In this document: piece by piece, positions 36,264 to 50,879 of the stretch
How positions within the stretch are numbered: position 1 is the stretch's first letter
Layout of the letters: each line of letters begins with the position of its first letter
Assembly (NCBI GenBank): GCA_019694895.1
Contig: JAIBBA010000004.1
Location: 1 to 53,906 of the forward strand
Direction of reading: 5' to 3'
Source: Chitinophagales bacterium
GTDB taxonomy: Bacteria; Bacteroidota; Bacteroidia; Chitinophagales; BACL12
Length of the DNA stretch: 53,906 bases
Program-made: the position numbers and the translations under genes
The notes under the pieces: model-generated
What the model was told of the DNA's origin: nothing
Database searches by the model: none
Seen by the model: only the letters and a program-made list of their open reading frames with translations

Positions 36264-37238
36264 TTAGAACGAAGAGATGGTAATAGTGCCATCGCCGATG
36301 ACATCTTTATCGGAATTAACAACTTGGTCGGGTAACATCAATCTAGCTGCAGCATCAAATGGTGCACTTAATACCAGGTTTTCCGATTCACTAATGCAGG
36401 TGCCAAATGTTTTTCCTTCACGCCATTTCAATAAGAATGGTAGTAATTCCACAGCACCGTTGGCATTGCAGGCTTTGGATCCGCTAGCGCAATTAAATCC
36501 TGCCGATACCCAATTGTCTGCTTGAGAAGCACCATAACATGCAGTGGAGTATACCATGCGAAGTTTGGATGCCGGAAGATTTGCATCCCGAATGGCATTT
36601 ACAATCGTCGTCATGTGAACAGTATCATTGCTCAAAGTCAGCGAGTCGCGACCACCATGGAGGAATACGATCAAATCCACTTCCCATATATTGCTATTAC
36701 CCGTCATACGCGAAAGATTTGATACAATGCGATCAAGTGTTACATCTCCGGGTCCAAGCACTTTAATTTCATGGTAATAACCACGCAAATTGGCATTTAC
36801 AAGATTTACACCATTTGACTCAGAAAACTGGTATAATGGTCTGAAATTTTTAAGTGTTCCGGTAAGCACCTGCGAAAGGTCAGCCAATACAAGTAATGCT
36901 CTGTTTTCAGATCTGATGGCGGGTTTTGTAAAAGGTAATAGGATAGGAACGCTGATAGCAGCATTTACATAGATGAAAGGACCTGTATGGCGTCGGCCAA
37001 TTGAATCGGTTACCTCGAAAGTGAGATTCATGAAATCGTGTTCCCATGGCCAAAATCCATCCGGTTCATCTTTCCAATCAATGGTTCTTCCAACAAATTT
37101 TCCACGCGAGTCGGTGGTAGCGGTCAGAATTACATTATCTGACGAGCGATCATCCTGATCGATAATACGAACTGTAGCATTTTTTGCGGGTGTTGTATCA
37201 AGATAAGATACTGAGCCGCTAATGTTTAAACGTGACAT
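36264..37238 (-). CDS. Hypothetical protein: N-terminal transthyretin/CarboxypepD_reg-like beta-sandwich plus C-terminal domain with caspase-like His/Cys layout
   Basis: 324 aa with no signal peptide. The N-terminus reads ISGSVSYLDTTPAKNATVRIID...TTDSRGKFVG. The C-terminal domain has three hydrophobic strands: RALLVLADL, VDLIVFLHGG (His194) and LRMVYSTACYGAS (Cys234). The fold assignment is inference only. Confidence 0.5.
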   Translation of the reverse strand: MSRLNISGSVSYLDTTPAKNATVRIIDQDDRSSDNVILTATTDSRGKFVGRTIDWKDEPDGFWPWEHDFMNLTFEVTDSIGRRHTGPFIYVNAAISVPILLPFTKPAIRSENRALLVLADLSQVLTGTLKNFRPLYQFSESNGVNLVNANLRGYYHEIKVLGPGDVTLDRIVSNLSRMTGNSNIWEVDLIVFLHGGRDSLTLSNDTVHMTTIVNAIRDANLPASKLRMVYSTACYGASQADNWVSAGFNCASGSKACNANGAVELLPFLLKWREGKTFGTCISESENLVLSAPFDAAARLMLPDQVVNSDKDVIGDGTITISSF

Positions 37239-38359: not shown

Positions 38360-38881
38360 TTATTTTAGGATAGTGAATATCTGTTTTGCCGTTACAAATC
38401 CCTTCGGACTTTGGATAGCTACCAAGTATTGTCCCGCAGACAAAGAAGTAACATCCAATTGGGTGCTGTACTCATGCTCAAATTTGAATTGCATTACTTC
38501 GGCACCCATTAAATTATAAATTGTTCCTTCCGCACCCGAAATGAGCATCGCATCACATTCAATTGTAATCAGCGCAGTAGCCGGATTGGGGTAGCAGGAT
38601 ATAACTATTTCAGGAGATAGCCCGGTCACATTGTCTGCTTCAAAAATTGTTGTGTCCAAAGCTGGTTCGGGAATGGTGGTGACACGCTGAAATCCCTCTT
38701 CAAGCGTATATCCATATTTATCGAAAGTGCGTATACAAGTCTCGCCAATGGTATATGAAATATTGCCGTGAGCCGCGAAGGTTTGACCATCTGTTGCAAT
38801 TACAAATGAACTAATGGTTTGCCCATCAACATTTGTAATCAAATAGCAATAGCAAACAATAACATAAAAAATTCCTTTCAT
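38360..38881 (-). CDS. Small secreted protein with T9SS type A sorting domain
   Basis: 173 aa with a signal peptide. C-terminal SCYPNPATALITIE...GQYLVAIQSPKG.... Confidence 0.7.
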   Translation of the reverse strand: MKGIFYVIVCYCYLITNVDGQTISSFVIATDGQTFAAHGNISYTIGETCIRTFDKYGYTLEEGFQRVTTIPEPALDTTIFEADNVTGLSPEIVISCYPNPATALITIECDAMLISGAEGTIYNLMGAEVMQFKFEHEYSTQLDVTSLSAGQYLVAIQSPKGFVTAKQIFTILK

Positions 38882-38990
38882 AGCATTCGGGGATTAATTG
38901 GGTGAATATGTAACTGGTCTGTAACAATGCAAAGATGACTAGCCAAAGCTGTTTCGGCAATCACCTATATGGGTGAAAATATTTGACCGA

Positions 38991-39022
38991 TAAAAAAACC
39001 CCATGACCGAATTGCCATGGGG
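38991..39022 (-). terminator. Intrinsic terminator ending the S8-partner-HK-RR transcription unit
   Basis: Stem ccccatg (38999-39005) / catgggg (39016-39022). On the minus strand it is followed by ttttttta. It lies 27 nt after the RR stop. Confidence 0.8.
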
Positions 39023-39048
39023 TTTAATGATTTATGACATAAATAAAA

Positions 39049-39696
39049 CTAACTGATCAAATTTTCCTGAAGTGCTTTTGCCACTGCTTCTGTTTTTGAT
39101 GCCACCTGAAGTTTATCATAGATCTTTTTTACGTGGCTATGAACAGTTTCGGCAGAAATAAATAATGCTTCTCCAATTAATTTATAACTCTTACCTTTTG
39201 CGAGCAGTTGCAATACTTCAAACTCGCGATCGCTGAGCTGATAGTCCTTTTCAGCCATTGGTTTTTCCATAGCAGCAGACCTGAATAATTCGACAACACG
39301 TCTTGCTATACTTGGAGTCATAGGTGCGCCGCCTTCATACACTTCCTTTATGGCTTCCAACACCTGATGCGGAGGGGTATTTTTCAACAGATAGCCATTG
39401 GCACCATAGCAGATGGAATAGAATATTTTTCTGTCCTCATCAAAACTTGTCTGCATAATGATTCTTACATCCGGAAACTTCGCATGCAGCATTTTCACTG
39501 CATCGATTCCCGACAGGCCAGGCATTTCAATATCCATCAAGACTACATCCGGGTCAGCTTTCTCTACGTCTTTGACCACGTTCTCCGCATTTGGAAATCC
39601 GCCTCCCCATTCGAAGCCGGGTGTTCCTTTCAGCAGGGCACTCATAGCGTCACGCACTCTGCGATGGTCATCAAAAACGCATACTTTGATAGACAT
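39049..39696 (-). CDS. NarL/FixJ-family response regulator (REC + LuxR HTH)
   Basis: 215 aa. Receiver DVVLMDIEMPGLSG, C-terminal LSDREFEVLQLLAKGKSYKLIGEALFISAETVHSHVKKIY. Confidence 0.9.
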   Translation of the reverse strand: MSIKVCVFDDHRRVRDAMSALLKGTPGFEWGGGFPNAENVVKDVEKADPDVVLMDIEMPGLSGIDAVKMLHAKFPDVRIIMQTSFDEDRKIFYSICYGANGYLLKNTPPHQVLEAIKEVYEGGAPMTPSIARRVVELFRSAAMEKPMAEKDYQLSDREFEVLQLLAKGKSYKLIGEALFISAETVHSHVKKIYDKLQVASKTEAVAKALQENLIS

Positions 39697-39760
39697 GTGA
39701 TGTAGTTTTTACAAAGATGAATGAATTTGAATCAATGGTCAATAACCCGGTCGGGGGATT

Positions 39761-41638
39761 TCAAGGTATTGGAATATTGAATGTCAATTGAGTTCCGGTA
39801 TTCCCGGAGCAGATGTCGAACTGCGCGTCTATATTTTCTGCTCGTCGGCGCATATTTTGAAGTCCGTTGCCATTTCCTGCATTGGCAATATCAAATCCGC
39901 GACCGTCATCAGTGACACTCAAATTGATACTATCAGGTTTGTACTTGATCGACAATAGCACATTCTTCGCCTGAGCATATTTTGCACTGTTATTTAAAGC
40001 CTCCTTGAGGATCATGTAAATTTGATGTCTTACAGCCATAGGCACTTCTTTGGAAGAAATATCGCCGGTAATCTCGACTTTAAAATTGGTGTTTCCTGCG
40101 CCAAATATTTTATATCCGAAATTCGACAAGCGCGTGGTAAGTTGTTCAAAACTATCGTTGCGCGGGTTTACGGCCCATACCAGGTCGCTCATATTATCCA
40201 TCAACTCTCGTGAAGTATTAGCTATTTCGCTGCCATAATTAATTGCTGCCGGATAGTCAGATGCCTGCAGGGTGTTTTTCAATACTTCACTATATAAGCC
40301 AATACTACTCAATGCAGAACCTATTTCATCATGCAAATCGGCAGAGATGCGCAGTCTGTCGTCTGCTAATTTCTTTTCATACTCCAGCTTTCTTTTGAGT
40401 TGCCGCTGACGCATATAAAACAATATGGCACCAATAATTATCAGCGTACCTCCTGCTAACAGGCTACCTACAAAGCGTTGTCGGGCAATAACACCTGCCT
40501 GCATGGCGGATGTTGCTTTTTCTTCTGCAATAATCCGGTCCTTTTTCTCAGTTTCGTAGGCAAGTTGTAACTGCGCAATTTTTTCTGTTTTTTCAAGTGT
40601 ATACACTTCTTCATTCAATGCCAACGCCTGAGAAACGGCTTCATAGGCATCTGCAGTTCTTCCCTGATTGATATAAACCGTTGCCAGTAATTTATAATTT
40701 GTAATCAATTGTGTTTTCAATTCCTGATCAGTACAAATTTTATTGCTCTCCAGCAGGTATCTTATCGCTAATTCATCATTACCGGTTTGCACATAAAAAT
40801 CACCAAGATTGCTGGTTACGGCTGCGAGTTCTGTGCTTCCTGTGGATTTATAGATATTGTAAGCAAATTGAAAATAAAATAAAATACTATCTTTTGGAAG
40901 GGGGTTTTGCTCCATCAATATCAGGCCGAGTGTATTGGATGCATCAGCCAGCAAATCGTCAGAAACACTATCAGCCAAAGAGATGGTTTCCAGTAAATAT
41001 GGTTTGGCTTTTGCCATATTCGCACCTTGCTCATAATATACATTAGCAAGATTATTGCAAATACGTGCCAGTCGCTGTTCTTCTATGTTATTTGTTTTTT
41101 TTGCAACTTGATATCCTGACAGCAGATATTCTTCAGCAAGCGCATAGTCACCATTATTTTTGTAAGACAATCCAAGATTATTATAATTATCTACCACTAC
41201 ACCCTTTTCAGCAACTTTTTCATTAATACGCAAAGCGGAAAGTTGATAAAAAATTGCTGAATCAATCATTTCCTTTTCGTTGTATACATTGCCAAGATTA
41301 GTATAGCACTTAGCTATACCAATTGAATCATGATCGGCACTCCTGTAGTGAAGACTTTTTTTATAGTTAGATACAGCTTCATTCAACCTACCCGCATTTT
41401 TATCCAACAGTCCCAATCGCGTATAGGCATCGCCTAGGCCATGCAGGTAATTAATTTGCTCTGACAGATTCAATGCTGATTTAGCTAGCTCGAGGGCCTG
41501 AGTGGTATCCTTTTTAATAAGATCGAAGGACATTTTGTTAAGCGCATTGATCCTGGCTGTGTCGTTACCGGTGCCTGCATTCATCAGGAAGGAATAACTA
41601 ACTAGCAGCAAGAACAAATAAAAAGCCCCTGATCTCAT
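39761..41638 (-). CDS. TPR-repeat sensor histidine kinase (HisKA_3/HATPase_c)
   Basis: 625 aa. Signal/anchor, then ~350 aa of TPR-like repeats, a coiled coil and a TM (LLAGGTLIIIGAILFYM). H-box ISADLHDEIGSALS. N/G boxes (EALNNSAKYA, DDGRGF, GNGLQNM). Confidence 0.85.
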   Translation of the reverse strand: MRSGAFYLFLLLVSYSFLMNAGTGNDTARINALNKMSFDLIKKDTTQALELAKSALNLSEQINYLHGLGDAYTRLGLLDKNAGRLNEAVSNYKKSLHYRSADHDSIGIAKCYTNLGNVYNEKEMIDSAIFYQLSALRINEKVAEKGVVVDNYNNLGLSYKNNGDYALAEEYLLSGYQVAKKTNNIEEQRLARICNNLANVYYEQGANMAKAKPYLLETISLADSVSDDLLADASNTLGLILMEQNPLPKDSILFYFQFAYNIYKSTGSTELAAVTSNLGDFYVQTGNDELAIRYLLESNKICTDQELKTQLITNYKLLATVYINQGRTADAYEAVSQALALNEEVYTLEKTEKIAQLQLAYETEKKDRIIAEEKATSAMQAGVIARQRFVGSLLAGGTLIIIGAILFYMRQRQLKRKLEYEKKLADDRLRISADLHDEIGSALSSIGLYSEVLKNTLQASDYPAAINYGSEIANTSRELMDNMSDLVWAVNPRNDSFEQLTTRLSNFGYKIFGAGNTNFKVEITGDISSKEVPMAVRHQIYMILKEALNNSAKYAQAKNVLLSIKYKPDSINLSVTDDGRGFDIANAGNGNGLQNMRRRAENIDAQFDICSGNTGTQLTFNIPIP

Positions 41639-41686
41639 GTAGGTGTGTTTACTGCTAAGGTAAGCAACAACAGAGACTTATCGGTT

Positions 41687-42379
41687 TTAGTCATCACCAG
41701 AAGCATCTGCCTCGCTATCGGTGGTTGAGCCCTTTGTCTTTTTAGGGTTTGAACCATCAACACGCAACTCAAGTGTCTCATAAGTTGTTGGATCATAGCC
41801 ATCGGCACTTCCAATCTCATAAGTAAAATGCGGGGTAACGGCATTTGTGTAAATATTAGCCTGAACAACATTTACATTTAGTCGCATAATAAAATCAGAT
41901 TGATTACCAACGGGATTTGAAGGTTGAGAGATATTCACTTGACTCAATTCATCAGGACCAAGTTCCAATAAACCATGGTATTTGAGTGTACCAGTTCTGA
42001 TAAACTGTAAGTATGAAAACAACTTATAGTCGACAGCATCAAAATCATTTGCACCAATTTTAATAGTTGTTCTTCCAACCATATTGTTCTGATAAACCAC
42101 ACGCACAACAATTTTACTAAAGTTCGTACTACTAAATCCATTCAAAGTTGAACAGTCAATTATTGTTTTAACAACTTGCGATCCTGTAGTAACAGTTGTA
42201 AGTGTGAGGGTAAGCAAATAAGTATTGGAATTTTGTGGAGCACCGCTTGCCTGCAATGCATATGCAGCACCGGTTTGAGGACCTTTAACATACACCTCTA
42301 TTTTCAAAGGTGTTCCGCTCTCATCTAAATAAACGTACGGCTTGTTTGCGAGCATGTTAGTGGGAAAGGTAAGTGCCAT
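41687..42379 (-). CDS. Hypothetical all-beta protein with acidic disordered tail, coupled to the S8 peptidase
   Basis: 230 aa with no signal peptide. Its start is 3 nt after the peptidase stop. It contains a Thr/Ser-rich alternating segment TYLLTLTLTTVTTGSQVVKTII. The C-terminus reads SNPKKTKGSTTDSEADASGDD. Confidence 0.7.
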   Translation of the reverse strand: MALTFPTNMLANKPYVYLDESGTPLKIEVYVKGPQTGAAYALQASGAPQNSNTYLLTLTLTTVTTGSQVVKTIIDCSTLNGFSSTNFSKIVVRVVYQNNMVGRTTIKIGANDFDAVDYKLFSYLQFIRTGTLKYHGLLELGPDELSQVNISQPSNPVGNQSDFIMRLNVNVVQANIYTNAVTPHFTYEIGSADGYDPTTYETLELRVDGSNPKKTKGSTTDSEADASGDD

Positions 42380-42382
42380 TGA

Positions 42383-43735
42383 TCAATGATTTTGAATGTA
42401 ATTAATTGCCTTAATAAGATCGAAAATGCGGAAATTCCTAAACGGTGAGTGAGCACCCGTGAGGCCTCCAATTGCTGCATGCGTTGTAGATGTTGGTGGT
42501 TGAACGGTATGTCCGAAGCCATCGAAATTTCTTTCTTCGCCGGTGCTTTTCAATGCGGTAAATATTTTTTGAATGGGGACACAAGATTCATGTATATGCA
42601 ACTTATTTCTGATTTTCTGCTGCAATAGCAATACCATTCCCGCTAAGACACCGGCAGCCTGGCTTGTACCCGACATAACGGTGTATCCTTGAGGATATTG
42701 ACCTGGTAGGACAGCGTGCTGAATCGGCCGATTGTCTAATGATACCATTTGCAATCCGGGCACTGCAACAAATAAGGAAAGGTTAGATGTATCATTTGTT
42801 TCTTTGCGGATACGTTGTGTAAAAATAGCCATATCGTCTTTTTGAAAAGAAACGGTATCGCCTAAATCCGATCTGCTTACGTAGTAAATACCATCATCAT
42901 TCGCGGTTGCGCCTGCACAAATAATATGCTGACTGACGGCAGGAAAAGCAAGTCCGGTATGCTCAAGAACTTGTGGTGTTTTATGTTTTTTACCGAAGCC
43001 ATCTGTAATTGTTCTTGAAGAGACATCAGCAAAATCAATAAAATGGTTGCCACTCGACACCACCACGACAATATTACTTTCACAACAGATTTTAAAAAGC
43101 TTCATCAACCTGTTATTTGTTGTATCAAATTCATTTGCGTTGTTGAAATTATCAAAGCTATTAAAGCAAATGAGCACACAACTAACCTTATTATAAGGTT
43201 TAGTACCGGCATCAGCATTGTAGTTCAACACTTGATCAAGGCCATCAGCTATTCGTTTCCAGGTGGTGGTGTCTTCATTTCCTTCGGTAACTTTTACAGA
43301 TACAATTTTTGCTTTTGGTGCAATTCCGGAAAATTTAGCGAGAGCTTTACTTCTACCGGCAGCTGCCAAACCGGCTACATGTGTACCATGCCCGTGTAAA
43401 TCATGAATATCTGATGTTGGCAATTTCTCGCCCTTGTAGTTCATGGATAAAATAACTCTGGCTCCAAAATCAGGATGTTCGGCATATATTCCTGTATCCA
43501 AAACCGCCAACACACTGCCTTCACCATCTAATCCGGTGCCGGTTACATTAAATATTTTGGTTGCATTATGCACTGCCAGGTCCGCAACTTCTACGGGTAC
43601 ATCAATTTTTGTACCGGTAGGTTTTGGCCCAAGAAAATTTATGGGTTTAAGCAGAGGCACCATACCTGTTCCTTGTTCGGTAGTATACCGTGTGTGCATT
43701 TTTAAGTTACTGTCATTGACAATCTTGATAGCCAT
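42383..43735 (-). CDS. S8 family serine peptidase (subtilase) without signal peptide
   Basis: 450 aa. Catalytic triad motifs AVLDTGI (Asp), HGHGTHVAG (His), MSGTSQAAG (Ser). The N-terminus MAIKIVNDSNLK... is not hydrophobic. Confidence 0.9.
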   Translation of the reverse strand: MAIKIVNDSNLKMHTRYTTEQGTGMVPLLKPINFLGPKPTGTKIDVPVEVADLAVHNATKIFNVTGTGLDGEGSVLAVLDTGIYAEHPDFGARVILSMNYKGEKLPTSDIHDLHGHGTHVAGLAAAGRSKALAKFSGIAPKAKIVSVKVTEGNEDTTTWKRIADGLDQVLNYNADAGTKPYNKVSCVLICFNSFDNFNNANEFDTTNNRLMKLFKICCESNIVVVVSSGNHFIDFADVSSRTITDGFGKKHKTPQVLEHTGLAFPAVSQHIICAGATANDDGIYYVSRSDLGDTVSFQKDDMAIFTQRIRKETNDTSNLSLFVAVPGLQMVSLDNRPIQHAVLPGQYPQGYTVMSGTSQAAGVLAGMVLLLQQKIRNKLHIHESCVPIQKIFTALKSTGEERNFDGFGHTVQPPTSTTHAAIGGLTGAHSPFRNFRIFDLIKAINYIQNH

Positions 43736-43754
43736 GTAGTTTCGATTTACAAGT

Positions 43755-43762
43755 CAAAAGTA
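43755..43762 (-). promoter_or_regulatory. Candidate -7 promoter box for the S8 peptidase operon
   Basis: The minus strand reads tacttttg (TAnnTTTG), ~20 nt upstream of the ATG at 43735. Confidence 0.3.
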
Positions 43763-43855
43763 GAATAATACCTTAAAATACACAATCCCCCGACCGGGTG
43801 AACCTTACTGCATTGATAAACCTTGTCAGCCTTGGGTTGACTGTGAATAATTGAA

Positions 43856-43863
43856 TAGCTTTG
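43856..43863 (+). promoter_or_regulatory. Candidate -7 promoter box for the radical SAM operon (would give a leaderless or very short-leader mRNA)
   Basis: tagctttg (TAnnTTTG) ends 4 nt before the ATG at 43868. Confidence 0.3.
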
Positions 43864-43867
43864 TTGC

Positions 43868-45238
43868 ATGCAGGTAATACTCACTCATGGGTATTCAATT
43901 ATTGATGATGTGCGAGAGCAGCAGATCATGAAGCCTTATGCACCATTAGGAATTCTTTACATTTCCGGTTGGCTGGATGCACATGGCATTAACAATCATG
44001 TGATAGACACCACATTCATTACACAAGACGAGCAATGGAATCAAATAAAAGAAGCAAAACCTGAATTCCTTGGTGTTTATGTGAATTTGATGACCAGGAA
44101 AAATGTTGTTCAACTCATCAAAAAAATAAAGCAAGAGATAAATCTCAAGCACACTAAAATTATTCTTGGCGGTCCGGAAGTGCGAAATAATGCACAACAA
44201 TGGTTGCAAACGGGAGCAGATGTATTAGTTGTTGGCGAAGGGGAGATCACTTTTGAAACATTAGTGACAAGCTGGAAAACACATAAAGATCTTTATCAAA
44301 TTGCCGGCATATATTTTTTGGATGAGAGCGGAAATATGCATTTCACCGGTGAACGTGAAAAGATAAAAGATATTGACATTTTACCTTTCCCTGCACGTCA
44401 GCATATCTCCATTCAAAAATATCTGGAGGTATGGAAATCGCGTCACGGCAAAAACGCCATTTCAGTTTCTACAATGCGTGGCTGCCCATATACTTGTAAG
44501 TGGTGTAGTCGCGCAGTATATGGCATGAGTTACCGCCGGCGTTCACCACAAAAAGTTGTAGAGGAGTTGCAACACATTCAAGAAGTTTATAATCCCGATA
44601 CTATTTGGTTTGTCGATGATGTGTTTACGATCAGTCATAAATGGTTAGAAGAATTTGCACGTTGCGTTAAAGAAGCAAATTTGACACTGCCATACGAATG
44701 TATTTCCCGGGCAGATAGAATGAATGCTGAAGTAATTCATTTACTGAAAGAAAGCGGATGTTTCAGAGTATGGATTGGCGCTGAAAGTGGCTCGCAGCGT
44801 ATCATTGATGCGATGGACCGAAGGGTGAAAGTGGAAAGTGTGCAGGAAATGATCAGACTATCCAATGCAAATGGTATAGAAACAGGCACCTTTATTATGT
44901 TGGGCTATCCGGGCGAAACAGAATTGGACATTGTCCAAACCGTGAAACATCTGAAGGCTGCATTACCGGATTTATTTACCATTACAACTGCATATCCCAT
45001 CAGAGGAACAGAGTTATTTGCAGAAATACAAAACGACATCATCAATGAACCGGACTGGGCTAATTCAAGCGACAGGGATGTCACTTTCAAGCGCAATTAT
45101 CCGGAATCCTACTATAAACATGCTGTAAGATACGTAGTGAATGAAACAAACTATGCAAAAAGCAAGGCACCATTGTTAAAGTTGAAATCCATGTTAGCGC
45201 GAATGATGATGTGGTATACCAGAAAATTCGCTGTATGA
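43868..45238 (+). CDS. B12-binding-domain (class B-like) radical SAM protein, paralog 1
   Basis: 456 aa. N-terminal Rossmann-like domain (PLGILYISG..., ILGGPE). Cluster motif MRGCPYTCKWC. WIGAESGSQRIIDAMDR, GYPGET. Confidence 0.85.
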   Translation: MQVILTHGYSIIDDVREQQIMKPYAPLGILYISGWLDAHGINNHVIDTTFITQDEQWNQIKEAKPEFLGVYVNLMTRKNVVQLIKKIKQEINLKHTKIILGGPEVRNNAQQWLQTGADVLVVGEGEITFETLVTSWKTHKDLYQIAGIYFLDESGNMHFTGEREKIKDIDILPFPARQHISIQKYLEVWKSRHGKNAISVSTMRGCPYTCKWCSRAVYGMSYRRRSPQKVVEELQHIQEVYNPDTIWFVDDVFTISHKWLEEFARCVKEANLTLPYECISRADRMNAEVIHLLKESGCFRVWIGAESGSQRIIDAMDRRVKVESVQEMIRLSNANGIETGTFIMLGYPGETELDIVQTVKHLKAALPDLFTITTAYPIRGTELFAEIQNDIINEPDWANSSDRDVTFKRNYPESYYKHAVRYVVNETNYAKSKAPLLKLKSMLARMMMWYTRKFAV

Positions 45239-46272
45239 CGAAGCTGATACTTGTAAGCCCGGGATTTCCTGCCGATGAAAACGACAGCGCTGCGGTGCCA
45301 TATCTGCAAGATTATTGCCTTCACTTATTAAAAAAGGTGCCCGCAGAAAATATTAATATCGTTAGCACACAATATCCATATACTCCAAAACCATATTTAT
45401 GGAATGGGATTCAAGTCTACCCCATAGGCGGGAAAAACAGAAAAGGCATTTACCAACTTATTAATCATATTAAAACCAAAAAGCGTTTAAAAAGTATTGT
45501 TGGCAAGGAGCCTGCCGTCATCCATGCATTTTGGTTGAGCGATGCAGCAATGAGTGCTTCTTCGTTCGCAGCTAAACGTAAATTACCATGCCTTGTAACA
45601 TTGATGGGGCAAGATGCAAAAGCAGGTAATCCTTATTTTAAATTAGTATCAAAACATGTTGCATTTACATCTTTATGCAATTTTCAGGCTAATGTTTTTC
45701 GAAATGATTATCAAACTGTAGTAAAGGCAGTAATACCGCTTCCATTACCCTCGATTGATTTACGCCCTGTTATTTCAAGGTCAATAGATTTATTGTTTGT
45801 AGGATCATATATTCAAGTAAAACAGCCATTACAATTTATTGAAATTGTTGCCGAAATAAAGAAAAAACACAGCGGTGTCAGGGCTGTAATGATTGGAGGA
45901 GGTCCACTCTTAGCTGAAATAAATTCACGCGTTGTTGCATTGCATCTGCAAGATCATATTGTTGTGCTGGAAAGCATAAACCGAGATGAGGTATTCGAAT
46001 ACATGCAGCGCTCTAAAATTTTGGTACATACATCAAGTTTTGAAGGCCAATGCAATGTTTACGGGGAGGCGCTGCTTTGTGGAATGCATGTGCTCAGCTA
46101 CAACGTTGGTTATATTGCAGATTCACCGAAGCATATTGTATGTGCGGATAAAAACGAATTTGTGTTAAAAATCATGCAATTACTTTTGCATCCTATTAAC
46201 TTTACTCCCGTTCGTTCTATTGATGATGAACAATGTATTAATGCATATTTGAACCTGTACGGGATGTCATGA
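45235..46272 (+). CDS. GT4/GT-B glycosyltransferase
   Basis: The ATG at 45235 overlaps the upstream stop (ATGA). E-x7-E motif SSFEGQCNVYGEALLCG. The ORF track start (GTG 45211) is less likely. Confidence 0.8.
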   Translation: MTKLILVSPGFPADENDSAAVPYLQDYCLHLLKKVPAENINIVSTQYPYTPKPYLWNGIQVYPIGGKNRKGIYQLINHIKTKKRLKSIVGKEPAVIHAFWLSDAAMSASSFAAKRKLPCLVTLMGQDAKAGNPYFKLVSKHVAFTSLCNFQANVFRNDYQTVVKAVIPLPLPSIDLRPVISRSIDLLFVGSYIQVKQPLQFIEIVAEIKKKHSGVRAVMIGGGPLLAEINSRVVALHLQDHIVVLESINRDEVFEYMQRSKILVHTSSFEGQCNVYGEALLCGMHVLSYNVGYIADSPKHIVCADKNEFVLKIMQLLLHPINFTPVRSIDDEQCINAYLNLYGMS

Positions 46273-47786
46273 CCAAGGAAGAAGCACAATTCGGTATATT
46301 ATTGTTCAATCCGCGGGCTGCGAAGCACAAGGCCAGGATACCGAATTCTATTCTATCAATTGCGGCCGCCATTGCCGGAAAATATCCCTATATCATTGTA
46401 GATGGCAATCGCGAGGATGATCCTCTTTCCATAATTATGCAGCATTTGCAAACCGGAAAATTCAACGTATTTGCATGCACTGTAATGCCCGGGCCGCAAC
46501 TGAAACAAGCAATTCCCATTACAAAACAAATCAAGTCACTTTTTCCCGACATATATATTGTATGGGGAGGCTATTTTGCAAGCAATCAATCCGGCGTAGT
46601 GATGCAGTCGGGATGGGTGGATAGTATAGTGTATGGTCCGGGTGATCGTGCATTTCCGATGCTAATAGATGCGCTAGAACAGGATGGGCCTCTTGACATG
46701 ATTCCAAATTTGATTTGGAAAAACGGTGGTGAGGTTCATAAAAATCACAAGGATGAATTATATGATCAAGACACCTTACCGGCATTGCCGTATCAAGCAT
46801 TACATGATTTTTACGACATGCGCGGTTATTTGGGAAAGACAATTCTTGGCAACAAAACAATCGCCTATCATAGCAGCATTGGTTGTCCTTTCACCTGTGC
46901 TTTCTGTGGTATAGTTCCTATTTACAATGCGCGTTGGAAGGGTAGATCAGCAGAATTAATTTACAAGGATATTCAATTTCTGAAAAACACCTACGGTGGC
47001 GATGCTATTGAATTTCACGATAATAATTTCTTTGTATCAGAGAAAAGAACCGCTGATTTCTCAACACTCATGCTTAATGAAAACATGCAATGGTGGGGAG
47101 AGGGTCGCATTGATACCATACACAAATACAGCGATGATACCCTACAATTGATGCGTGATGCCGGTTGCAAAATGATATTCTTTGGCGCAGAGACCGGCAA
47201 CGATGCAGTTTTACAATTAATGGACAAAGGAGGCACACAAACAGCGGATCAAATCAGAGCCTTTGCAGCGCGTTTGAAGAAATTTGATATTATTCCGGAA
47301 TATTCATTTGTGTTAGGCACCCCGGGCAAAGACGAAGCAGAAACCTTGCAGAGGATTGAAGAAGATATCGCATTTATTCGGGAGATAAAATCTATCAATC
47401 CGCAAACTGAGATTATCATATATGTGTATTCTCCGGTACCGACAGAAGGCAGTGAATTATTTTCAGCCGTGCAAGCAGGAGGATTTCATTTTCCACAACA
47501 ACTCGAAGACTGGATATCACCGGCATGGGAATCCTTCGATTTACGAAAAAATCCGCTTACCCCGTGGCTTAAACCATATATGATAGACAAAATCAGGTCA
47601 TTTGAAGTTGTGTTGAATGGCGCATATCCAACGGTGAGCGATATCAAATTAAAATCCTTCGACAAAAAACTCATGCGTTCACTTGCATCATGGCGATATA
47701 AAACAGAGTTTTACAAATTCCCGATAGAAGTAAAGCTCATGCAAAAACTACTGCGATATCGACAACCTGAAATTGAAGGATTTTGA
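46269..47786 (+). CDS. B12-binding-domain radical SAM protein (distinct subfamily with long C-terminal extension)
   Basis: 505 aa. ATGA overlap with the GT gene. VWGGYFAS N-terminal domain. Cluster motif SIGCPFTCAFC. FFGAETGND. Confidence 0.85.
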   Translation: MTKEEAQFGILLFNPRAAKHKARIPNSILSIAAAIAGKYPYIIVDGNREDDPLSIIMQHLQTGKFNVFACTVMPGPQLKQAIPITKQIKSLFPDIYIVWGGYFASNQSGVVMQSGWVDSIVYGPGDRAFPMLIDALEQDGPLDMIPNLIWKNGGEVHKNHKDELYDQDTLPALPYQALHDFYDMRGYLGKTILGNKTIAYHSSIGCPFTCAFCGIVPIYNARWKGRSAELIYKDIQFLKNTYGGDAIEFHDNNFFVSEKRTADFSTLMLNENMQWWGEGRIDTIHKYSDDTLQLMRDAGCKMIFFGAETGNDAVLQLMDKGGTQTADQIRAFAARLKKFDIIPEYSFVLGTPGKDEAETLQRIEEDIAFIREIKSINPQTEIIIYVYSPVPTEGSELFSAVQAGGFHFPQQLEDWISPAWESFDLRKNPLTPWLKPYMIDKIRSFEVVLNGAYPTVSDIKLKSFDKKLMRSLASWRYKTEFYKFPIEVKLMQKLLRYRQPEIEGF

Positions 47787-48448
47787 AGCGCAAATTGATG
47801 AAATTTTTTACGGCCTGGTTTGTTCAACCGTATGTGCGGAGGAAAATGCAGCGTTCGTCATTTTATAAATGGGAGGATGTTACCTTGTTTTTACCTCCGG
47901 GTGTATTTCATCCCGGTTACTTTTATAGTACCAAATATTTACTTCAATTCATACTTAAACAGCATATTTCAGGTAAACAATTACTAGAGTTAGGTGCCGG
48001 CAATGGCCTCATCAGCATTGCATCGGCAAAAAGGGGTGCAAAAGTAAGTGCAAGTGATATTAGTAAAGAAGCCTTGCGGTCATTACGGGATAATGCACGG
48101 ACAAATCATGTTGGGTTAACAATCATTGAAAGTGATTTATTCGAACAGATTCCGGATGCTCCCTATGATTACATCGTAATCAATCCGCCATTTTATCCAT
48201 TAGATCCACGTAACGACCTGGAACGCGCCTGGTATTGCGGGCAAGACTATGCATATTTCAGAAAAATGTTTGAGCAACTTCCTGTATTTATGCACCCACA
48301 AACAAAAGTATATATGATATTATCTGAAGATACCGGTATCGGGCAGATAGAAAATTTAGCTGGATTTGGCAATTTGCGGCTAGAAATGACAGAAAAGAAA
48401 CAAATATTCTACGAATGGAACTATATTTATGAAATAGTTCGCGCATGA
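47783..48448 (+). CDS. Small-domain SAM methyltransferase with NPPF motif (HemK/RsmC-like)
   Basis: 221 aa. LELGAGNGLISIA (motif I), ASDIS, IVINPPFYP (motif IV). The TTG at 47783 overlaps the upstream stop (TTGA). An alternative ATG is at 47798. Confidence 0.75.
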   Translation: MKRKLMKFFTAWFVQPYVRRKMQRSSFYKWEDVTLFLPPGVFHPGYFYSTKYLLQFILKQHISGKQLLELGAGNGLISIASAKRGAKVSASDISKEALRSLRDNARTNHVGLTIIESDLFEQIPDAPYDYIVINPPFYPLDPRNDLERAWYCGQDYAYFRKMFEQLPVFMHPQTKVYMILSEDTGIGQIENLAGFGNLRLEMTEKKQIFYEWNYIYEIVRA

Positions 48449-49404
48449 ATAGCAACTTGCATATCGTAAAGGAAGAACAATTTGAAAACGCCTCAACTCT
48501 TGAGCGTGCTATTCTGCGTGCCTTGATCTACTTCGATATATTTCAATACCCATTATCCAAGCAAGAAATCATTCTATTCTGCAACATTGTCCCCGAGAAT
48601 TTAAAAAGTGTTGAACGTGTTCTCGACAGACTATGCAATCGATTGTTAATTTTCAAATTTGACGACCTTTATTCCATTCATAATTCAATTGGTTTGGCCG
48701 ACAGAAGGCGATGTGGAAACAAGGGTGCGATAGAGGCAATGCCCAAAGCCATCAAACGAGCAAAGCTTATACAGGCATTCCCGTTTGTTCGCAGCGTGAA
48801 TATCAGTGGAAGCATGTCGAAAAATTATTTCGATGCCGATACTGACGTCGACTTCTTTGTAATCACATCTAAAAACAGGATTTGGTTAACAAGACTGATG
48901 CTAACTTTCTTTAAGAAGGTATTTCTATTGAATCAACGCAAATATTTCTGCGTTAACTACTTTATTGACACAGAACAATTTCTAATACCTGATAAAAATT
49001 TATTTGCCGCTACAGAAATCGTAACATTAAAAAATGTGACAGGCGCTAAATACTACCATCAATTTTTACAAGAAAACGCTTGGGTTTCAGACTACTTTCC
49101 TAATTTCGAGATGCCGATTTTAATTACGCAAAATTCTCGTATGCCTGTGTTTAAACGTAGCATGGAGAAACTATTATCAGGTAAGTTCGGTGACCGCATG
49201 GATGATATATGTTTCAGTTTGATGCAGTTTTTTCTGCGAAGAAAATATCGCTATCTGAACGAAACACAATTTGAGGTGAACATGCGTGGAAACAAACACG
49301 CTTCAAAGCACCACCCCCAAGGATTTCAATTCAAAGTATTAGAGGCCTTCAATAAGGGATGCCATCAGTTTTCACAAAAACATGATTTTCCATTGGATGC
49401 ATGA
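48445..49404 (+). CDS. Hypothetical protein with wHTH-like N-terminus and Pol-beta-type nucleotidyltransferase signature
   Basis: 319 aa with ATGA overlaps on both sides. ISGSMSKNYFDADTDVDFFVI fits the G[SG]...D.D NTase pattern. Assignment is by motif only. Confidence 0.5.
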   Translation: MNSNLHIVKEEQFENASTLERAILRALIYFDIFQYPLSKQEIILFCNIVPENLKSVERVLDRLCNRLLIFKFDDLYSIHNSIGLADRRRCGNKGAIEAMPKAIKRAKLIQAFPFVRSVNISGSMSKNYFDADTDVDFFVITSKNRIWLTRLMLTFFKKVFLLNQRKYFCVNYFIDTEQFLIPDKNLFAATEIVTLKNVTGAKYYHQFLQENAWVSDYFPNFEMPILITQNSRMPVFKRSMEKLLSGKFGDRMDDICFSLMQFFLRRKYRYLNETQFEVNMRGNKHASKHHPQGFQFKVLEAFNKGCHQFSQKHDFPLDA

Positions 49405-50879
49405 AGCCTGTAGTAATTTGTAATACTTACTTTTTACACCTGGATCCGAAACAGGAGCGGAGGATGGAGCCATATCCGCCTTTAGGCACCCTATATGCTG
49501 CTGCCGTGTTGCGCGAAAAAGGATATGATATTCATTTCTTTGATACCATTTTTTGTTCCGGTCCGGAGGCAATCTTTAATACATTGTCCAAATTTCAAGC
49601 CGGCATATTCATTATTTGTGACGACGGATTTAATTACCTGACAAAAATGTGTCTGGTCAACATGCGGGAGGCCTGCTCAGCAATGATCAAAAAGGCCAAA
49701 GAAGAGGGGTTTACCATTTTAGTTTCGAGTAGTGACGCCACTGATCATTGGCAAGATTATTTAAATGTTGGAGCCGATGCCATTGTAATCGGTGAACCTG
49801 AACAAACAATTGCTGCATGTGTAGACGCCTTACAACATGAAAATCCGGCTTTAAATACCATTGAGGGATTAGGATTGCGCACAACAACCGGTTTTGCAAA
49901 AACACCTGCACGCGCATTAATGCAAGACCTGGATAATTTGCCGCTTCCTGCGTGGGATCTTATTGACATGGATCAATATCGTTCACGCTGGATGGCACAT
50001 TCAGGATATTTTTCCATTAATATGACCACAACACGTGGTTGTCCCTTTAAATGTAATTGGTGTGCCAAACCGATTTACGGCAATCGATATCATTCGCGAA
50101 GCGCTAAAGCTGTTGCAGATGAAATTAATTTACTGCGAAATACCTATCAGGTTGAACATATTTGGTTCTGCGATGACATTTTTGGTTTAAAACCAAATTG
50201 GATAAACAGCTTTGCCGGTTTGATGCAAGAACAACCGATACCATTTAAGATTCAATGCAGAGCAGATCTATTGTTGGATGAAAATAATATCCAATCACTT
50301 GCCGGAGCAGGTTGCGATGAAGTGTGGATAGGTGCCGAAAGCGGCTCGCAAAAAATTCTCGATGCCATGGATAAAGGCACAACAATAGCACAGATAACCG
50401 AAAGCAGTCGCCTTATGTATCGCTCCGGAATAAAGCCTTGTTTTTTTCTTCAATTCGGTTATCCGGGAGAAACATTGACTGATATAAAGTCAACCATGAA
50501 ACTTTTGCGCAATTGTAAACCCTATGATATTGGTATTTCCATTTCATATCCATTACCGGGCACTGTATTTTACGATCGCGTATTTGCGCAATTGAGTAAC
50601 AAGCAAAATTGGAATGACAGCGATGAATTATTGATGATGTATCATGGCACTTATTCTGCAGCTTTCTATAAATATCTGCATCGCTATGTGCATCGAAGAT
50701 TCCGGATGTTACAGGGAATGAAATGTATCAGAGAAATTTTTTCAGGCAAACGAAATACTACATCGCCCCCGCTAAAAAGATTATTTGCATTACCTATTCA
50801 CAGTGTACTATGTTTGTATTATTTCCTCATGGTACAAACAAAAAAGCAACCTGTGTCTGAGTTACAGGTTGCTTCCTAA
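49401..50879 (+). CDS. B12-binding-domain radical SAM protein, paralog 2 (of 43868..45238)
   Basis: 492 aa. PLGTLYAAA, cluster motif TRGCPFKCNWC, WIGAESGSQKILDAMDK, GYPGET. Confidence 0.85.
   Translation: MKPVVICNTYFLHLDPKQERRMEPYPPLGTLYAAAVLREKGYDIHFFDTIFCSGPEAIFNTLSKFQAGIFIICDDGFNYLTKMCLVNMREACSAMIKKAKEEGFTILVSSSDATDHWQDYLNVGADAIVIGEPEQTIAACVDALQHENPALNTIEGLGLRTTTGFAKTPARALMQDLDNLPLPAWDLIDMDQYRSRWMAHSGYFSINMTTTRGCPFKCNWCAKPIYGNRYHSRSAKAVADEINLLRNTYQVEHIWFCDDIFGLKPNWINSFAGLMQEQPIPFKIQCRADLLLDENNIQSLAGAGCDEVWIGAESGSQKILDAMDKGTTIAQITESSRLMYRSGIKPCFFLQFGYPGETLTDIKSTMKLLRNCKPYDIGISISYPLPGTVFYDRVFAQLSNKQNWNDSDELLMMYHGTYSAAFYKYLHRYVHRRFRMLQGMKCIREIFSGKRNTTSPPLKRLFALPIHSVLCLYYFLMVQTKKQPVSELQVAS
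50845..50873. terminator. Hairpin terminator shared by convergent genes, embedded in the last codons of the radical SAM gene
   Basis: 10-bp stem agcaacctgt (50845-50854) / acaggttgct (50864-50873). aaaaa lies 5' on the + strand, which gives a T-run on the minus strand. Confidence 0.7.

Follow-up and report, generated by a model that had tools for sequence, protein, structure and literature searches.

Within a stretch of 53,906 nucleotides (nt) from an uncultured Chitinophagales bacterium (GenBank assembly GCA_019694895.1, contig JAIBBA010000004.1, positions 1 to 53,906; hereafter the window), the gene for a subtilase of peptidase family S8 (hereafter S8) lies directly before that of an orphan protein of 230 residues, which we call X. 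Our analysis showed that S8 and X, together with a TPR-HisKA_3 sensor histidine kinase and a LuxR-type response regulator, make up a four-gene signalling cassette whose members are gained and lost together. Within it, the evidence supports S8 and X being a functionally coupled, co-inherited protease-plus-partner pair. A sequence-only reading of the same DNA had proposed a protease-plus-effector pair comparable to bacterial gasdermins and beta-pore-forming toxins; the coupling of the two genes was borne out by their spacing, by inheritance as a block and by RNA contigs across the junction, whereas the pore-forming analogy was not. The pair is never found without its dedicated TPR kinase, and it has an operator in common with the regulator gene and with the gene for a cargo protein of a type IX secretion system (T9SS); both points favour signalling over a suicide effector. 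The cassette represents accessory-regulated two-component signalling to which a new family of orphan proteins belongs and for which operator and target gene are defined; our literature search found no prior account of it.

The four genes and their inheritance

The S8 gene occupies window positions 42383-43735 (minus strand) and encodes a protein of 450 residues without signal peptide, matched by Pfam PF00082 (Peptidase_S8; E = 3.2e-27). X is encoded at 41687-42379, also on the minus strand, and both open reading frames stand where the sequence-only reading had placed them. The intact catalytic triad claimed there was found as quoted, with Asp80 in AVLDTGI (residues 77-83), His116 in HGHGTHVAG (114-122) and Ser358 in SGTSQAAG (355-362). 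The oxyanion residue is Asn230, within SSGN, and all four residues are kept in 9/9 partner subtilases aligned. S8 accordingly displays the Asp-His-Ser order, the oxyanion Asn and the subtilisin fold of peptidase family S8, the latter with Foldseek E-values of about 1e-15 and TM-scores of about 0.70-0.76 to mature subtilisins. No hydrophobic segment was detected in S8 or in X, in agreement with the earlier claims that the protease has no hydrophobic N-terminus and that its partner has no signal peptide.

The kinase (39761-41638, minus strand; 625 residues; Pfam TPR, HisKA_3 and HATPase) is composed of a signal-like N-terminus, TPR repeats, a single transmembrane segment (residues 389-407), HisKA_3 and HATPase, a topology that is identical in all cassettes. 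Given this order, with one transmembrane segment between TPR and kinase core, the TPR domain is predicted to be periplasmic. The regulator (39049-39696, minus strand; 215 residues), which combines a receiver domain (PF00072; E = 2.3e-21) with a LuxR/GerE helix-turn-helix (PF00196; E = 4.2e-19), is the best-conserved cassette component (48-97% identity). Kinase and regulator fit a two-component system of the NarL/LuxR class (HisKA_3 and HATPase with receiver and GerE), and their pairing recurs in other cassettes. The spacings between S8 and X, X and kinase, and kinase and regulator are 3, 48 and 64 nt, respectively, and a terminator-like hairpin (38996-39025, minus strand), consisting of a 12-bp stem followed by a T-run, closes the four-gene operon. 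No exporter gene was found in the cassette.

Sequence conservation among cassette kinases delimits an N-terminal TPR block that is specific to them (residues 26-140; window 41219-41563, minus strand), with the signature DTAxINxLN...GLGDGYTRLGxLEKNxG...YxKSLxYR...NIGN...YDSAIYYH. Among cassette kinases this block has a mean pairwise identity of 46%, whereas the remaining sensor sequence reaches 31%; compared with a non-cassette paralog the value is 24%. Cassette kinases score 356-401 bits, and the best TPR kinase of same-genus genomes lacking X reaches at most 193 bits. As judged from these comparisons, the kinase belongs to a dedicated TPR-kinase subfamily, found only beside X and missing from X-negative genomes of the same genus.

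We read the genomic context of X in a Logan contig carrying two cassettes, in nine genomes of the same genus or family, as well as in three from a second family. S8 is directly upstream of X in 15/16 readable loci from the two taxonomic families, which bears out the co-occurrence that the sequence-only reading had named as a check; this adjacency is far beyond chance. The TPR kinase follows X immediately in 15/15 loci, and nearly all of them have a LuxR-type regulator next to these genes, either after the kinase or before S8. The S8-X spacing ranges from 3 to 33 nt across cassettes; in the window the junction reads CAT TGA TCA ATG, with 3 nt between the stop codon TGA and the start codon ATG, just as had been described. 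Here (42380-42385) the two genes share one reading frame and are parted by the TGA and one codon. As such a shared frame occurs in 6/10 cassettes and not in the remainder, there is no evidence for programmed readthrough from S8 into X.

The cassette has a patchy distribution, being present in 12/28 genomes of the family and 15/401 of the order. Its hosts are uncultured Chitinophagales/Bacteroidota metagenome-assembled genomes (MAGs): a search of named genomes with the single X protein found nothing, and one with an X sub-alignment returned four MAGs. The hosts are abundant in activated sludge, and nearly identical copies of the window locus are present in at least 7 studies of wastewater or activated sludge. 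Two genomes carry tandem copies of X; these diverged paralogs lie between S8 and kinase in genus g5 (L019 14031-15311 and L030 3697-5012), and one tandem copy in genome G020 contains an internal TGA.

In four metatranscriptomes, S8 and X are covered by contigs of low depth, one of them crossing the S8-X junction and one the X-kinase junction, with DNA carry-over being possible. In window 38800-44100, metatranscriptome contigs were recovered over S8, over X and over the kinase gene's 5' end, whereas the body of the kinase gene and the regulator gene had none, a contig-based and weak hint that the front of the operon has a higher transcript abundance.

Fold, tail and modular evolution of X

X belongs to a new orphan protein family with tandem immunoglobulin (Ig)-like modules and an acidic tail. 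Its relatives are very rare, with 3 in a set of 5.8 billion clusters and, at E <= 1e-3, 8 representatives in a set of 1.84 billion, and our family alignment (A1) comprises 13 members of 20-51% identity. An AlphaFold2 model built on this alignment was usable (predicted local distance difference test [pLDDT] 79.1; predicted template-modelling score [pTM] 0.83) and consists of 15 beta strands and no helices, as anticipated by the earlier description of X as almost entirely beta. The strands form two tandem Ig-like sandwiches (roughly residues 9-112 and 113-212) followed by the tail. When the profiles of the two modules were compared with each other, the probability of duplication was 86% (E = 4.7e-6).

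Foldseek searches with the model returned no match at E <= 1e-3 in either PDB (0 matches) or BFVD. The top weak PDB matches were Fab light chains, themselves two tandem Ig-like sandwiches (E >= 0.04), and a sequence-profile search of PDB gave only insignificant matches to antibody heavy-chain variable domains (E about 0.08). Pfam, NCBIfam and PADLOC scans of the window's X found no family match, and Pfam and PADLOC scans of the 13 members at E <= 5 found no consistent one.

Near the N-terminus the family shares the motif L-K-P-Y-x-W-L-D-E, in which Lys13 and Pro14 are invariant (NKPYVYLDE in the window; 42320-42346, minus strand; alignment A1). A K-P-[YF]-x-[YFW]-L motif also begins the second module and the single-module variants, and a YDPSTY motif is conserved across the family. 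The most conserved block of all is the acidic C-terminal tail (residues 214-230; window 41690-41740, minus strand; KTKGSTTDSEADASGDD; peptide GSTTDSEADASGDD), with the consensus K-G-x-G-T-T-x-x-S-(E/D)-A-D-S-S-G-D-(D/N). In the 13-member alignment, residues 217-229 hold 7/12 invariant or near-invariant columns. The sequence-only reading had rightly pointed to a charged tail but took it for low complexity; it is not filler, being instead the segment that the family conserves best. Single-module versions of X in two loci (127-130 residues) retain both the K-P-[YF] start and the tail, and no other tail-bearing protein was found in the same genome, where the tail is unique to X.

These data bear on the proposal that X is a latent gasdermin-like or beta-pore-forming toxin, freed by S8 through removal of its C-terminus and acting as an abortive-infection module. 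A protease gene does neighbour that of a small beta-rich protein with a short C-terminal segment (15/16 loci here), as in bacterial gasdermin operons, the distribution is patchy and accessory, and S8 is generically similar to PADLOC subtilase models. Fold, profiles and genomic context nevertheless disagree with the proposal. Foldseek found no gasdermin, aerolysin or ETX/MTX2 match in BFVD or in PDB, a library that contains these folds; bacterial gasdermin or other defence hidden Markov models matched 0/13 members; and the model shows two compact Ig-like sandwiches and not the elongated fold with insertion hairpin of aerolysin and ETX-MTX2 toxins. Moreover, the tail is invariant, unlike a variable inhibitory peptide, and the constant neighbours are a kinase and a regulator rather than defence genes. 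Homology of X to gasdermins or beta-pore-forming toxins was rejected on the basis of the Foldseek, Pfam, NCBIfam and PADLOC results, and we consider the toxic-effector proposal hardly credible. X is thus an orphan protein of tandem Ig-like modules that ends in a conserved acidic tail, neither gasdermin nor aerolysin-type. More generally, a protease gene beside that of a small beta-rich protein should not be called gasdermin-like without evidence from the fold.

Percent identities per cassette component were compiled for three pairs of loci. Between the window and L001a they are 60 for S8, 45 for the X body, 75 for the X end, 79-88 for the kinase and 97 for the regulator; between L015 and L016 the corresponding values are 43, 35-43, 64, 69-81 and 93. 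In both pairs S8 and the X body are hyper-divergent while kinase and regulator are conserved. The pair L016/L018 displays the opposite pattern, with 89 for S8, 90-97 for the X body, 95 for the X end, 70-80 for the kinase and 93 for the regulator. In addition, the window and L001 become similar again at the nucleotide level from about 48 codons ahead of the X stop, and this similarity extends at 76% across kinase and regulator. From these identity patterns and from the restart near the X end, S8 and the X body form one block with a history separate from that of kinase and regulator, the X tail going with the constant side. Inheritance as a shared block and the tight spacing of the two genes argue that S8 and X interact directly.

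Palindromes and the secreted protein

The window contains an exact 16-nt inverted repeat (arms 39745-39760 and 43784-43799) that is unique in the genome, and each arm falls within an operator-like palindrome. Copy 1 (43784-43801), which on the operon strand reads TTCACCCGGTCGGGGGATT, begins about 66 nt upstream of the ATG of S8, and copy 2 (39741-39760; AATCCCCCGACCGGGTTATT on the operon strand) lies right after the kinase stop codon, 45-64 nt before the ATG of the regulator. The cassette-specific palindrome has the form ATC(A/C)CC-N4-6-GG(G/T)GAT and recurs across the cassettes at two sites, one in front of S8 at a distance of about 65-69 nt from its ATG and one directly behind the kinase stop codon, where 45-64 nt separate it from the regulator ATG. 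A mobile-element end or an inversion site was considered as an explanation of the 16-nt repeat and rejected, the repeat being unique to the locus and part of a family of promoter-proximal palindromes; no strand-changing reads were found in four RNA runs.

Promoter-like boxes accompany the palindromes. A putative -7 promoter box of the Bacteroidota type (TACTTTTG; 43755-43762, minus strand) is located 27 nt before the S8 ATG, and the same TAC(A/T)TTTG box occurs at -24 to -27 in L001b, L014-L018 and L020. After copy 2, a TTTG box (CATCTTTG) is placed at -23 of the regulator ATG. TAnnTTTG or TTTG boxes trail the palindromes in most loci.

Outside the window, the same genome contains a third copy of the palindrome (AAATCACCCGACCGGGGTAT; C150:2615-2632), upstream of the T9SS cargo gene. 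This region (C150:2615-3987) comprises copy 3 and the gene for a secreted protein of unknown fold of about 430 residues, which has a signal peptide and, at its C-terminus, a T9SS sorting domain. An ortholog in genome G002, 44% identical, directly follows that genome's cassette regulator, and an identical 22-mer (AAAATCACCCGACCGGGGTATT) precedes both genes within flanks that are otherwise unrelated. Full-length orthologs of the cargo were found in 6 genomes of the family, all of them X-positive (6/6), and in 0/16 X-negative genomes (Fisher P = 0.0025). A palindrome of the cassette type is present upstream of all six (6/6). Judging from these site patterns, we infer binding of the palindrome by the LuxR-type regulator, which would thereby control its own gene, the S8-X-kinase operon and the secreted protein.

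Working models and neighbouring genes

The model that we prefer, with a probability of about 0.45, holds that S8 is the private protease of X, that cleavage governs a tail-bearing piece through which the two-component system is modulated, and that feedback operates via the shared operator. S8 would cut X, most likely in the variable linker ahead of the tail, and so set the availability of the tail-bearing piece; the released tail would act on a constant signalling partner; and the regulator would bind the palindrome and autoregulate. That the tail is the part addressing the signalling proteins is suggested by its invariance together with the constancy of kinase and regulator. The leading candidate for its target is the N-terminal TPR block that is specific to cassette kinases, with a feedback logic resembling that of agr, comQXPA and Phr; alternatively, the target may be cytoplasmic, being either the kinase core or the regulator. 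In TPR receptors, short peptides are bound via the peptide termini (PMC3601957), and the signal-less subtilisin PopC is known to reach the periplasm (PMC6434023).

Several observations weigh against this model. (i) With S8 and X lacking a signal peptide, no exporter encoded in the cassette and the TPR domain predicted to lie in the periplasm, the route from tail to TPR needs an export or release step. (ii) X is a folded 23-kDa protein rather than a short propeptide. (iii) The variable part of X and the kinase sensor do not co-vary, unlike in ComP or AgrC. (iv) A co-fold of S8 and X, in which the in-frame TGA was translated as Gly as a linker device only, with no readthrough claimed, reached a pTM of 0.59 with a low-confidence tail (pLDDT 42-68) and did not discriminate between this model and its rivals. 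(v) In genome G005 (L021 96-1423) X directly follows a LuxR-type regulator and guaB lies upstream; S8 of the cassette type was not detected in this MAG, which is 67% complete, and the locus may be an S8-less variant.

A more explicit version would be a protein-derived autoinducing circuit in Gram-negative Bacteroidota. In it the subtilase would free the invariant acidic C-terminal peptide from a tandem Ig-like carrier, the peptide would reach the periplasm unconventionally or by lysis of kin and be bound by the N-terminal TPR block, the cassette's own operon and the T9SS protein would be switched on, and the hyper-variable interface between S8 and the X body would gate the response by lineage. 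Taken as a whole, we deem this chain rather improbable.

The co-divergence of S8 and the X body, which also stay conserved together, would fit X serving S8 as its cognate inhibitor or escort, similar to IPI or PopD, with S8 as the output enzyme of the two-component system, held inactive or retained until release. The Ig-like fold of X speaks for such a role, in that IPI (BsuPI, PF12690) is an Ig-fold inhibitor of the Bacillus intracellular subtilisin Isp1 (PMC3901451), and the tight spacing favours stoichiometric co-production of S8 and X. The N-terminal extension of S8, which was modelled at pLDDT <50 in the co-fold, contains LLKPINF (residues 28-34), and every partner protease has a (K/R)-P-(I/L) motif in this extension, about 45-50 residues ahead of the catalytic Asp. 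The invariant N-terminal K-P-Y of X resembles this motif and also the inhibitory pro-segment LIPY/F of intracellular subtilisins (ISPs), which likewise carry neither signal peptide nor large pro-domain and have a Pro motif in a short extension at a similar distance from the Asp (PMC6220982). In Myxococcus xanthus, PopC is a signal-less subtilisin-like protease whose secretion is inhibited by its partner protein PopD (PMC6434023).

The likeness has limits, however. The S8 motif differs from LIPY/F; a specifically ISP-like structure of S8 was not supported, the fold being that of a generic subtilisin and no closer to ISPs than to secreted subtilisins. The PF12690 profile did not match X, which unlike IPI has two modules and a tail, and the co-fold showed no confident docking. 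PopC and PopD are not described with a dedicated TPR kinase and LuxR regulator. An inhibitor would also leave unexplained the most-conserved acidic tail, which tracks the kinase, and the always-adjacent dedicated kinase subfamily, and the G005 locus apparently has X without S8. We regard the inhibitor or escort role as rather unlikely.

The parallel conservation of the tail with the kinase core and regulator would also fit a fully cytoplasmic switch, in which the X tail binds the regulator or the kinase core as an anti-activator or modulator (as in RapF/ComA, TraM/TraR or CpxP/DegP) and S8 removes X on an intracellular cue. Since S8, X, regulator and kinase core are all cytoplasmic, no compartment problem arises. 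Regulator and X adjoin at the G005 locus, and DNA-mimicking acidic surfaces are known to block LuxR-type regulators (PMC3246441). Such a switch would leave the conserved, predicted periplasmic TPR block without a ligand; we hold it to be quite improbable.

The preferred model, in which S8 is the private protease of X, has its nearest parallels in agrBDCA of Staphylococcus and comQXPA of Bacillus, where processing enzyme, precursor, kinase and regulator follow one another in a single locus and where the enzyme-precursor part is likewise hyper-divergent between close relatives. ComP and ComA are of the same HisKA_3 and LuxR-NarL classes as the cassette pair, and autoregulation of the cassette is suggested by the palindrome shared between the S8 and regulator promoters. 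In contrast to these systems, X is a folded tandem Ig-like protein and the cassette enzyme a soluble subtilase, the kinase would sense via a periplasmic TPR domain in place of a polytopic membrane domain, its sensor and the variable part of X show no co-variation, there is no exporter, and the host is a Gram-negative member of the Bacteroidota. A second parallel is offered by the Rap-Phr (RNPP) systems of Bacillus. Phr peptides derive from the C-terminal end of their precursors and are freed by S8 proteases (subtilisin, Epr, Vpr). As would be the case here, a TPR receptor binds a short peptide via its termini (PMC3601957). The Phr precursors have Sec signals, unlike X, and their receptor is cytoplasmic and reached after re-import, whereas the cassette TPR sits in a membrane kinase and is predicted to face the periplasm.

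Signalling between cells by peptides or proteins is well known in Firmicutes and, to our knowledge, barely described in Bacteroidota. With four genes, an operator, a target gene and a 17-residue invariant tail, the cassette is a compact and testable candidate for such signalling. Even if the tail acts intracellularly, the system would represent a new way to couple a private protease-substrate pair to a two-component system.

Proteases recur downstream of the cassettes. In the window (36264-37238, minus strand) and in L001 (4738-5712), the cassette is followed by the gene for a leaderless protein of 324 residues, 82% identical between the two, with an N-domain resembling transthyretin and with His and Cys placed in a caspase-like arrangement (FLHGG ... 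STACYG), which is missing from the other cassette loci. In L015 (5380-7121) and L017 (5576-7224), a protein with a Peptidase_C14 caspase domain (E = 1e-31) comes directly after the regulator and is followed by an orphan protein of 226-228 residues. These two look like a second protease-plus-small-partner pair, which is absent in the otherwise syntenic L016 and L018. In G002 (L013 3685-6733), the cassette is followed by the ortholog of the T9SS cargo and then by a protein of 551 residues with a papain-family Peptidase_C1 domain. On the other side, a divergent B12-radical-SAM operon adjoins the cassette in the window (43868-50879), L013 (11802-18927) and L020 (3119-5796) and not in the other loci. 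As it is adjacent in these 3 loci only, it was rejected as a part of the cassette and placed outside the conserved unit; its adjacency probably reflects synteny among relatives rather than a functional link.

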